From positions 1-12,124 of IMG/VR virus record IMGVR_UViG_2695420576_000002: a stretch of 12,124 bases of DNA; one strand, given 5' to 3'. Positions 7,351 to 7,511 of this stretch are shown here, one piece after another (within the stretch, counting starts at the first letter, position 1; every line of letters begins with the position of its first letter). The translations under genes and the position numbers were made by a program. The notes under the pieces were generated by a model. The model was given only the letters and a program-made list of their open reading frames with translations, had not been told where the DNA came from and searched no databases. The stretch is from a virus (taxonomy: Duplodnaviria; Heunggongvirae; Uroviricota; Caudoviricetes).

Positions 7351-7511
7351 TATCTGCAATCAGGCTGGCGCGAGTTCTGTTTTTTTTTCGGGCCGGTCTG
7401 ATTTTCACATACTGTAAGGTTATTGCATATTCCTCCTAGTCTCTTCCCATTTTGACCCAGTTCTTCCCATAAATATCTCACTTATTCCCTCCCACGGAAC
7501 TCAAGTCTAAT
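7351..7511. other. noncoding junction segment between mor and truncated adiC; pyrimidine-rich on + strand with repeated TCTTCCCAT motifs
   Basis: No ORF with a credible start. T9 run at 7380-7388. TCTTCCCAT at 7442-7450 and 7462-7470, 20 bp apart, plus related ATTCCTCC and TTCCCTCCCA motifs. adiC-derived sequence begins at 7512. Confidence 0.5.

Follow-up and report, generated by a model that had tools for sequence, protein, structure and literature searches.

The window analysed here, a stretch of 12,124 nt, holds the early operon of a transposable prophage, the left end of this element and the host gene that it interrupts. The early operon is aimed at the left end and closes with gemA and mor, and genes 1 and 2 of BcepMu are arranged alike. 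The GemA gene (6540-6989, plus strand) is followed by mor (6961-7350, plus strand; 129 aa), whose product matches the Pfam family Mor (PF08765, E = 1.3e-43); the phage left end comes directly after it, with 163 bp between mor and the tip. The transposase is of the rve type and is accompanied by an AAA+ partner, not organized as a MuA/MuB pair: the segment 562-2328 matches rve only, and the segment 2342-3505 matches AAA_22 and AAA_16. MuA matches HTH_Tnp_Mu_1/2, DDE_2, and Mu-transpos_C, whereas BcepMu-type transposases match rve alone.

Just past the mor stop codon, a stable RNA hairpin is predicted at 7358-7403 (plus strand), with a 16-bp stem followed by UUUU, a folding energy of -24.8 kcal/mol and z = -4.2; none of 200 shuffles was as stable. 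This hairpin may serve as the early-operon terminator. A simple promoter/terminator scan called no canonical terminator in the junction, the hairpin included, and an Rfam scan of 7300-7600 returned nothing relevant, its sole match being a microRNA model at E = 0.22. No convincing match to the IHF consensus was seen by eye. At the other side of the early region, positions 1-570, upstream of the transposase gene, do not align with the reference prophage (L003), although identity elsewhere is 98.7%, which suggests that part of the early region was exchanged in a mosaic fashion.

The element end and its insertion into adiC

The non-coding segment 7351-7513 is the genuine left (mor-proximal) end of a BcepMu-like (Bcepmuvirus-type) transposable prophage that was inserted in the middle of adiC. 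When positions 6900-8100 were searched against 5,426 complete E. coli genomes, the left and right halves of this interval never co-occurred in any of them. As far as 7513-7517, the left half shares about 99% identity with a prophage whose annotation reads "gp16 family protein / Mor transcription activator", and the right half is adiC, found in nearly all E. coli genomes. The 163-nt non-coding segment itself was found in about 533 E. coli genomes, and the gene beyond the left tip varies among E. coli genomes, including ycaL, hycE, an MFS transporter, a TonB receptor, and others. The same picture is seen in IMG/VR, where 18 distinct flanks follow the same ...CTCAAGTCTAATCA; the sequence is shared up to ...TAATCA (7513) and continues into different host DNA. 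Because similarity halts at 7513 and the flanks differ between insertions, this position is the true end of the transposon. The closest named phage is Escherichia phage PhiKM, classified in Bcepmuvirus. Its record (PQ738613) labels Mor "protein C" and appears imperfect at 3616-3990, where about 330 bp of host DNA separate the left tip from tail-fibre genes.

The terminal 11 bp of the phage (7503-7513, minus strand) read TGATTAGACTT inward and finish with the terminal CA at 7512-7513, where similarity to the relatives ends. The termini are of the TG...CA kind: ...TAATCA at 7513 reads TGATTAG inward, and the other end in the relatives starts with TGATGCG. Native adiC sequence is continuous from 7514 on. 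The adjoining AATACG (7514-7519) is presumed to be one copy of a 6-bp target-site duplication, the second copy of which lies outside the window; the interrupted adiC (minus strand) comes next. Insertion took place about 500 nt from the adiC start codon, and adiY and adiA are the next genes. Many independent insertion sites, among the E. coli genomes and the 18 IMG/VR contigs, and short target duplications characterize the relatives; in the three that have both ends, the duplications are GAAGAA, ATGTGC, and GTGACG, that is 6 bp, compared with 5 bp in Mu.

The initial annotation had spoken of an abnormal boundary, a premise that proved to be wrong. In BcepMu, the mor homologue is gene 1 (365-736), 364 bp from the left tip, and gemA, the AAA+ protein, and the transposase precede it; B3 and JBD25 have the same layout. 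Since mor adjoins the left tip in BcepMu, B3, and JBD25, the boundary is that of a normal left end. In the Pseudomonas phages of the B3 type, B3 (L290), JBD25 (L297), and JD18 (L298), seen over positions 1-130, mor is likewise the first gene beside the left tip.

Putative transposase sites at the two ends

Both ends were available in a complete relative of 37,045 bp in E. coli 4/1-1. Read inward, its right (invertase) end is TGATGCGCCGC GCGATAAAT GCACTCTATCTTGT GCGATAAAT GGCATCC..., and its left (mor) end is TGATTAGACTT GAGATAAAT GACAGGGAATAAGT GAGATATTT ATGGGAAGA ACTGGGTCAAA ATGGGAAGA GACTAGGAGGAAT.... Each end thus carries two 23-bp imperfect repeats, inverted between the ends, with the core G[AC]GATAWWT at inward positions 12-20 and 35-43 at both ends of the E. 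coli phage and of BcepMu. Such 23-bp imperfect direct repeats are the published putative transposase sites (PMC2920897), and for the relatives of BcepMu a Tn552-related transposase and characteristic TG...CA termini have been described (PMC2628397). The core is conserved from E. coli to Burkholderia, and right-end variants in IMG/VR keep their cores while the spacers drift. At least 120 IMG/VR contigs, drawn from a wide range of environments, contain the combined pattern TGA-N8-GMGATAWWT-N14-GMGATAWWT, in many cases precisely where the contig ends, against 1-2 matches expected by chance according to a rough estimate made by hand. The tips of B3, JBD25, and JD18 also have BcepMu-like cores (GAGAAATAC, GCGATAAAG), followed by a 10-bp-phased GGGAT array.

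Both repeats are complete in the relatives. The window retains the second one intact, with the core GAGATATTT of this putative transposase-binding site at 7471-7479 (minus strand), and at the core position of the first one (7494-7502, minus strand) GAGTTCCGT replaces the otherwise invariant GAGATAAAT; the right end of this copy falls beyond the window. One of the two proposals made initially for 7420-7511, that these motifs belong to an element end, had the place right, as the end lies at 7513 with its terminal CA and both 23-bp transposase-type repeats fall within this interval. The further suggestion that the repeated motifs seen there are themselves the transposase-binding repeats did not hold, given that they differ from the G[AC]GATAWWT core and sit in a separate, phased array of the left end only.

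The altered core results from a patch of six substitutions within 9 bp (7491-7499; at 7491, 7492, 7495-7497, and 7499) that is private to the window. Positions 4666-7490 (about 2.8 kb) are identical to the reference prophage, and all differences cluster after them, in 7491-7499. The patch turns the site-1 core GAGATAAAT into GAGTTCCGT and creates TTCCCTCCCA, and all 17 of the other left-end variants are invariant at the site-1 core columns. This tip variant was absent from the 533 E. coli genomes and, by exact searches, from IMG/VR, the GTDB representative genomes, and the JGI metagenomes. Within it, CCACGGAAC (7492-7500) is the same as a piece of native adiC that lies across the insertion point, shifted by 1 nt, a coincidence with an estimated chance of about 1e-4. 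A polishing artefact caused by reads from a non-lysogen was considered and fits poorly, as the 13 bp nearest the junction are unchanged.

The interrupted adiC is also altered. Three adjacent tandem duplications at 7676-7778 (minus strand), 160-265 bp beyond the tip, add 58 bp and disrupt the reading frame; they comprise 13 bp at 7676/7689, 24 bp at 7689/7713, and 21 bp at 7736/7757, and occur in none of about 5,400 E. coli adiC copies. The patch and the duplications may have arisen as sequence artefacts or be genuine lesions. Should the patch be genuine, the outermost left transposase site would be lost and this prophage copy should not transpose from its left end.

A phased array of G-runs inside the left end

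The observation from which this analysis departed is that TCTTCCCAT occurs twice, at 7442-7450 and 7462-7470 (plus strand), exactly 20 bp apart, and both the repeat and its coordinates were borne out; there is no third copy on either strand of the window. The related motifs reported on its two sides, ATTCCTCC (7429-7436) and TTCCCTCCCA (7485-7494), are both present, but the second is private to the window, and every relative has TTCCCTGTCA in its place. Taken alone, the TCTTCCCAT pair is near the chance level and not significant: a first-order Markov model yields 1.08 ± 1.06 exact 9-mer direct-repeat pairs at most 30 bp apart in a sequence as long as the window, about one per 12 kb, and 4% of 163-nt sequences with the composition of the segment hold one such pair. 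Its meaning derives from comparison with the relatives.

The true periodicity is 10 bp and not 20 bp. On the plus strand, CCC runs begin at 7446, 7456, and 7466, and TTCCTCC lies at 7431-7437; on the minus strand, read inward from the tip, these become TGGG units every 10 bp, at inward 46, 56, and 66; an AGGAGG comes next at about 77, and one more GGGAA lies in phase with them at 25-29. The two 9-mers, ATGGGAAGA when read inward, are units 1 and 3 of a four-unit array with units of about 10 bp (7429-7469, minus strand; inward ATGGGAAGAAC / TGGGTCAAAA / TGGGAAGAGAC / TAGGAGGAAT), which we consider a candidate pac site. The proximal copy (7462-7470, inward 44-52) abuts the site-2 core and falls inside the second 23-bp repeat; the distal copy (7442-7450) is at inward 64-72. 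Nowhere else in the window or in the 37-kb reference prophage do three or more GGG runs follow one another at 9-11 bp, and the 9-mer is absent from the right end and the rest of that prophage. An inverted copy at the opposite end of the element, as had been suggested initially, was searched for in the right end of the relative and was absent.

The array was then compared across a family set of 85 non-redundant ends, all of them selected with a single transposase core pattern. For 61 of the 85, the assignment to left or right was made by a sequence proxy (base 2 of core 1); among the matches listed, gene-based classing was reached by iterative Mor-profile searches for 25 of 120 ends and by a marker-protein panel for 49 of 120, with the rest classed by proxy. 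Within inward positions 44-100, the 15 gene-classified left ends have on average 2.47 GGG but only 0.07 CCC runs, in comparison with 0.44 and 0.33 in the nine gene-classified right ends. Neighbouring runs are most often 10 bp apart (37 of 81), and a distance of 20 bp forms a second maximum. Chains of at least three identical 4-mers at 9-12 bp were found in 6 of 15 and 11 of 32 left-type ends, in none of 38 right-type ends, and in 3.9% of shuffles. Strict array criteria were passed by only 34-53% of left-type ends, the others having looser or different units (CGGAT, GGAAG). The units vary between phages, with GGGAT, CGGAT, GGAAG, ACGGAAT, and GGGAA all represented. Presence at one end only, internal to the terminal transposase site, extends to two contigs in which both ends are available (L176/L203 and L178/L196). 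Judged from these sequence comparisons, the array is a module of about 39 bp that is specific to the left end, strand-polar, recurrent across the family, and variable independently of the transposase core.

It could be argued that the 9-mer pair arose by chance or by a recent duplication in one lineage and has no function of its own. About one such pair is expected per 12 kb, and close relatives tolerate substitutions in both copies (TTTTCCCAC, ACTTCCCAT, TCATCCCAT). The TGGG units nevertheless persist at the same positions in variants that are about 70% identical elsewhere (v3, v10, and v11), where the surroundings have changed, as well as in the wider family. The strand polarity is also strict, at 2.47 GGG against 0.07 CCC per end, and we consider this functionless reading improbable.

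The other proposal of the initial annotation was a Mor-dependent middle promoter; the repeats would then be bound by Mor, and transcription beyond mor would be switched on from them. Such a promoter finds little room at this position. The repeats do lie just downstream of mor, as Pm does in Mu, and one weak sigma-70-like match (TTCACA-16-CATATT, 7404-7431) is directed toward them. The phage, however, ends 43 bp past the proximal repeat, and only the host adiC, in antisense orientation, is found beyond, leaving no phage gene to be transcribed. The sigma-70-like match is at chance level (0.6 expected), and no promoter-like site was seen downstream of the motif. In Mu, Mor binds a dyad-symmetric activator site upstream of the -10 hexamer, whereas the motif in the window is a same-strand direct repeat with no dyad and sits at the genome tip; proximity to a mor gene is all that it has in common with the Mu Pm/Mor site. 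The equivalent array of Mu is moreover located at the left tip, about 9 kb from mor and the middle operon. A Mor-dependent promoter is thus very improbable.

A dyad element shared by both ends

Beyond the array, a conserved near-palindromic element is found at 7401-7417 (minus strand; inward 97-113), reading TTACAGTATGTGAAAA inward. Of the 23 left-type ends that match the corresponding pattern TT[TGA]C[AG]N5-6[GT][GCT]AA[AG], 19 have it at inward 96-98, and of the 18 matching right-type ends, 16 have it at inward 58-59; just 1.6% of shuffles contain it anywhere. The dyad seems to be inverted relative to the tips, hence in direct orientation in the genome. In left ends TGTAATTC flanks the element, which is of the TTTCAC-N5-GTGAAA type, and in right ends GAATTACA does (right end of reference L003, inward 59-85).

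As the dyad is located at 97 in the left end and at 58-59 in the right end, the left end can be read as the right-end design plus an array module of about 39 bp. The inward layout consists of a TG...-type tip, two 23-bp repeats, the G-run module of about 39 bp in the left end only, and the dyad.

Comparison with BcepMu, Tn552, and Mu

The termini of BcepMu and phiE255 have a TGA... tip, ending ...TCA, and two G[AC]GATAWWT cores 23 bp apart at positions identical to those of the E. coli phage. These phages also share an rve-only transposase with an AAA+ partner, gemA and mor as the last genes before the left tip, and a small terminase of the gp27 type. They differ in that the E. coli type carries a Gin-like invertase at its right end instead of an acyltransferase, and in that the site-1 core of the window is mutated. 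The array of BcepMu is also less regular, with ACGGAACGG present twice, 15 bp apart, whereas the units of the E. coli lineage are TGGGAAGA and TGGGTC. Each end of the Staphylococcus aureus transposon Tn552 carries two 23-bp transposase sites in direct repeat, and its insertion duplicates 6-7 bp of the target. The transposase family of Tn552 has been reported as related (PMC2628397); this element is not a phage, hence there is no packaging and no need of a pac-type module.

The array can also be compared with Mu attL. Just inward of L1, Mu has a same-strand, 10-bp-phased array at about 33-80 (CGGGAGG, TTGGATT, CGGGATC, TGGGATT, and GTGGGGC), which occurs at the left end only, and its small terminase belongs to PF11985. 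In contrast, the transposase sites and MuA domains of Mu are unrelated to those of the E. coli phage, and its left end adjoins the repressor gene rather than mor.

Arrays of the same polarity were found just inside the left tip of Mu, Vibrio 1.136.O, Pasteurella AFS-2018a, B3, and JBD25. A search for gp27 homologues lists Mu, 1.136.O, AFS-2018a, and JBD25, with B3 outside this comparison. PF11985 (Phage_Mu_Gp27) is the family of the small terminases in Mu, in BcepMu, and in the E. coli phage, whose gp27 homologue is encoded at L003 26701-27246. In this small sample, the array co-occurs with a PF11985 small terminase irrespective of the transposase type. In D3112, the single negative control, a gp27 homologue is missing from the region searched around the terminase genes (9-19 kb), and the array is absent as well. 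No array was seen at the left ends of SuMu and RcapMu either, both of which are outside the gp27 comparison. The records of KP12 and phiE255 (one cut at a gene, the other permuted) and of Shewanella MuM16-2 (which starts inside a gene) were left out of the end analysis. The KP12 record (OM835952) also appears imperfect, being filed under Vequintavirinae despite a BcepMu-like gene order.

A candidate packaging signal

Because the MuA domains differ while the small terminases share PF11985, the array appears to be tied to packaging and not to the transposase. We therefore favor the interpretation that the array is a pac (packaging) site read by the small terminase, to which we would assign a probability of roughly 0.55 on the grounds of its position, its end-specificity, and the correlation with the terminase type. 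The pac site of Mu has reportedly been mapped to about nt 32-54 of attL, an interval overlapping the Mu array. The broader proposition, that a GGGA-type, 10-bp-phased, strand-polar array is the conserved pac signal of the gp27 (PF11985) family, stands at about even odds. It would be common to transposable phages with otherwise unrelated transposases and ends (Mu, the Vibrio and Pasteurella Mu-likes, B3, and the BcepMu-likes) and would form a fixed module of about 39 bp in an otherwise symmetric end.

Under the packaging interpretation, the Mu-gp27-type small terminase would sit as an oligomer along one face of the helix, with the phased GGGA-type units as its binding sites. The bound small terminase would then recruit the large terminase, which may cut in host DNA just outside the left end, and headful packaging would proceed rightward through the genome.

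The main rival to a pac site is a transposition or architectural role, in which the array would provide extra low-affinity sites for the transposase, sites for accessory proteins of the host or phage, or an intrinsically bent spacer that renders the left end asymmetric and helps to join the dyad to the terminal sites. The phased array could equally serve the architecture of a transpososome. It lies exactly between the second transposase repeat and the dyad common to both ends, its length is nearly constant at about 39 bp (roughly four helical turns), and its G-runs alternate with A-rich stretches in helical phase. The further in-phase GGGAA lies inside the spacer between sites 1 and 2 of the left end, the proximal 9-mer is within the second 23-bp repeat, and the L1-L2 spacer of Mu is bent by HU. 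Against such a role, the right ends must bind the transposase too and yet do so without the array sequence. The units also vary widely although all ends were selected for one transposase core pattern, and similar arrays are present in Mu, where the DNA-binding domains of the transposase are unrelated. To our knowledge, MuA footprints do not cover the L1-L2 spacer. We regard a transposition element as unlikely overall, though clearly the strongest of the alternatives to the pac site; a secondary role of the array as a bendable spacer in transpososome assembly may exist beside packaging.

Implications

For the prophage itself, a false alarm is removed: the junction between mor and host DNA is simply the usual left end of a BcepMu-like prophage common in E. 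coli, and neither a truncation nor a promoter. The end pattern is also a practical tool, as it delimits transposable prophages of the BcepMu/B3 type to the exact base in genomes and viromes.

The terminus is of a known kind, and what the comparison adds is a modest, testable lead, consisting of the family-wide, left-only array and its link to gp27-type terminases. In the literature searched, we found no definition of the sequence determinants of the packaging signal for gp27-type transposable phages outside Mu. The comparison of the ends separates three modules, namely the terminal transposase repeats, the left-only phased array, and the shared dyad, and this three-module view names a concrete sequence, open to experimental test, as candidate packaging signal for this group of phages.
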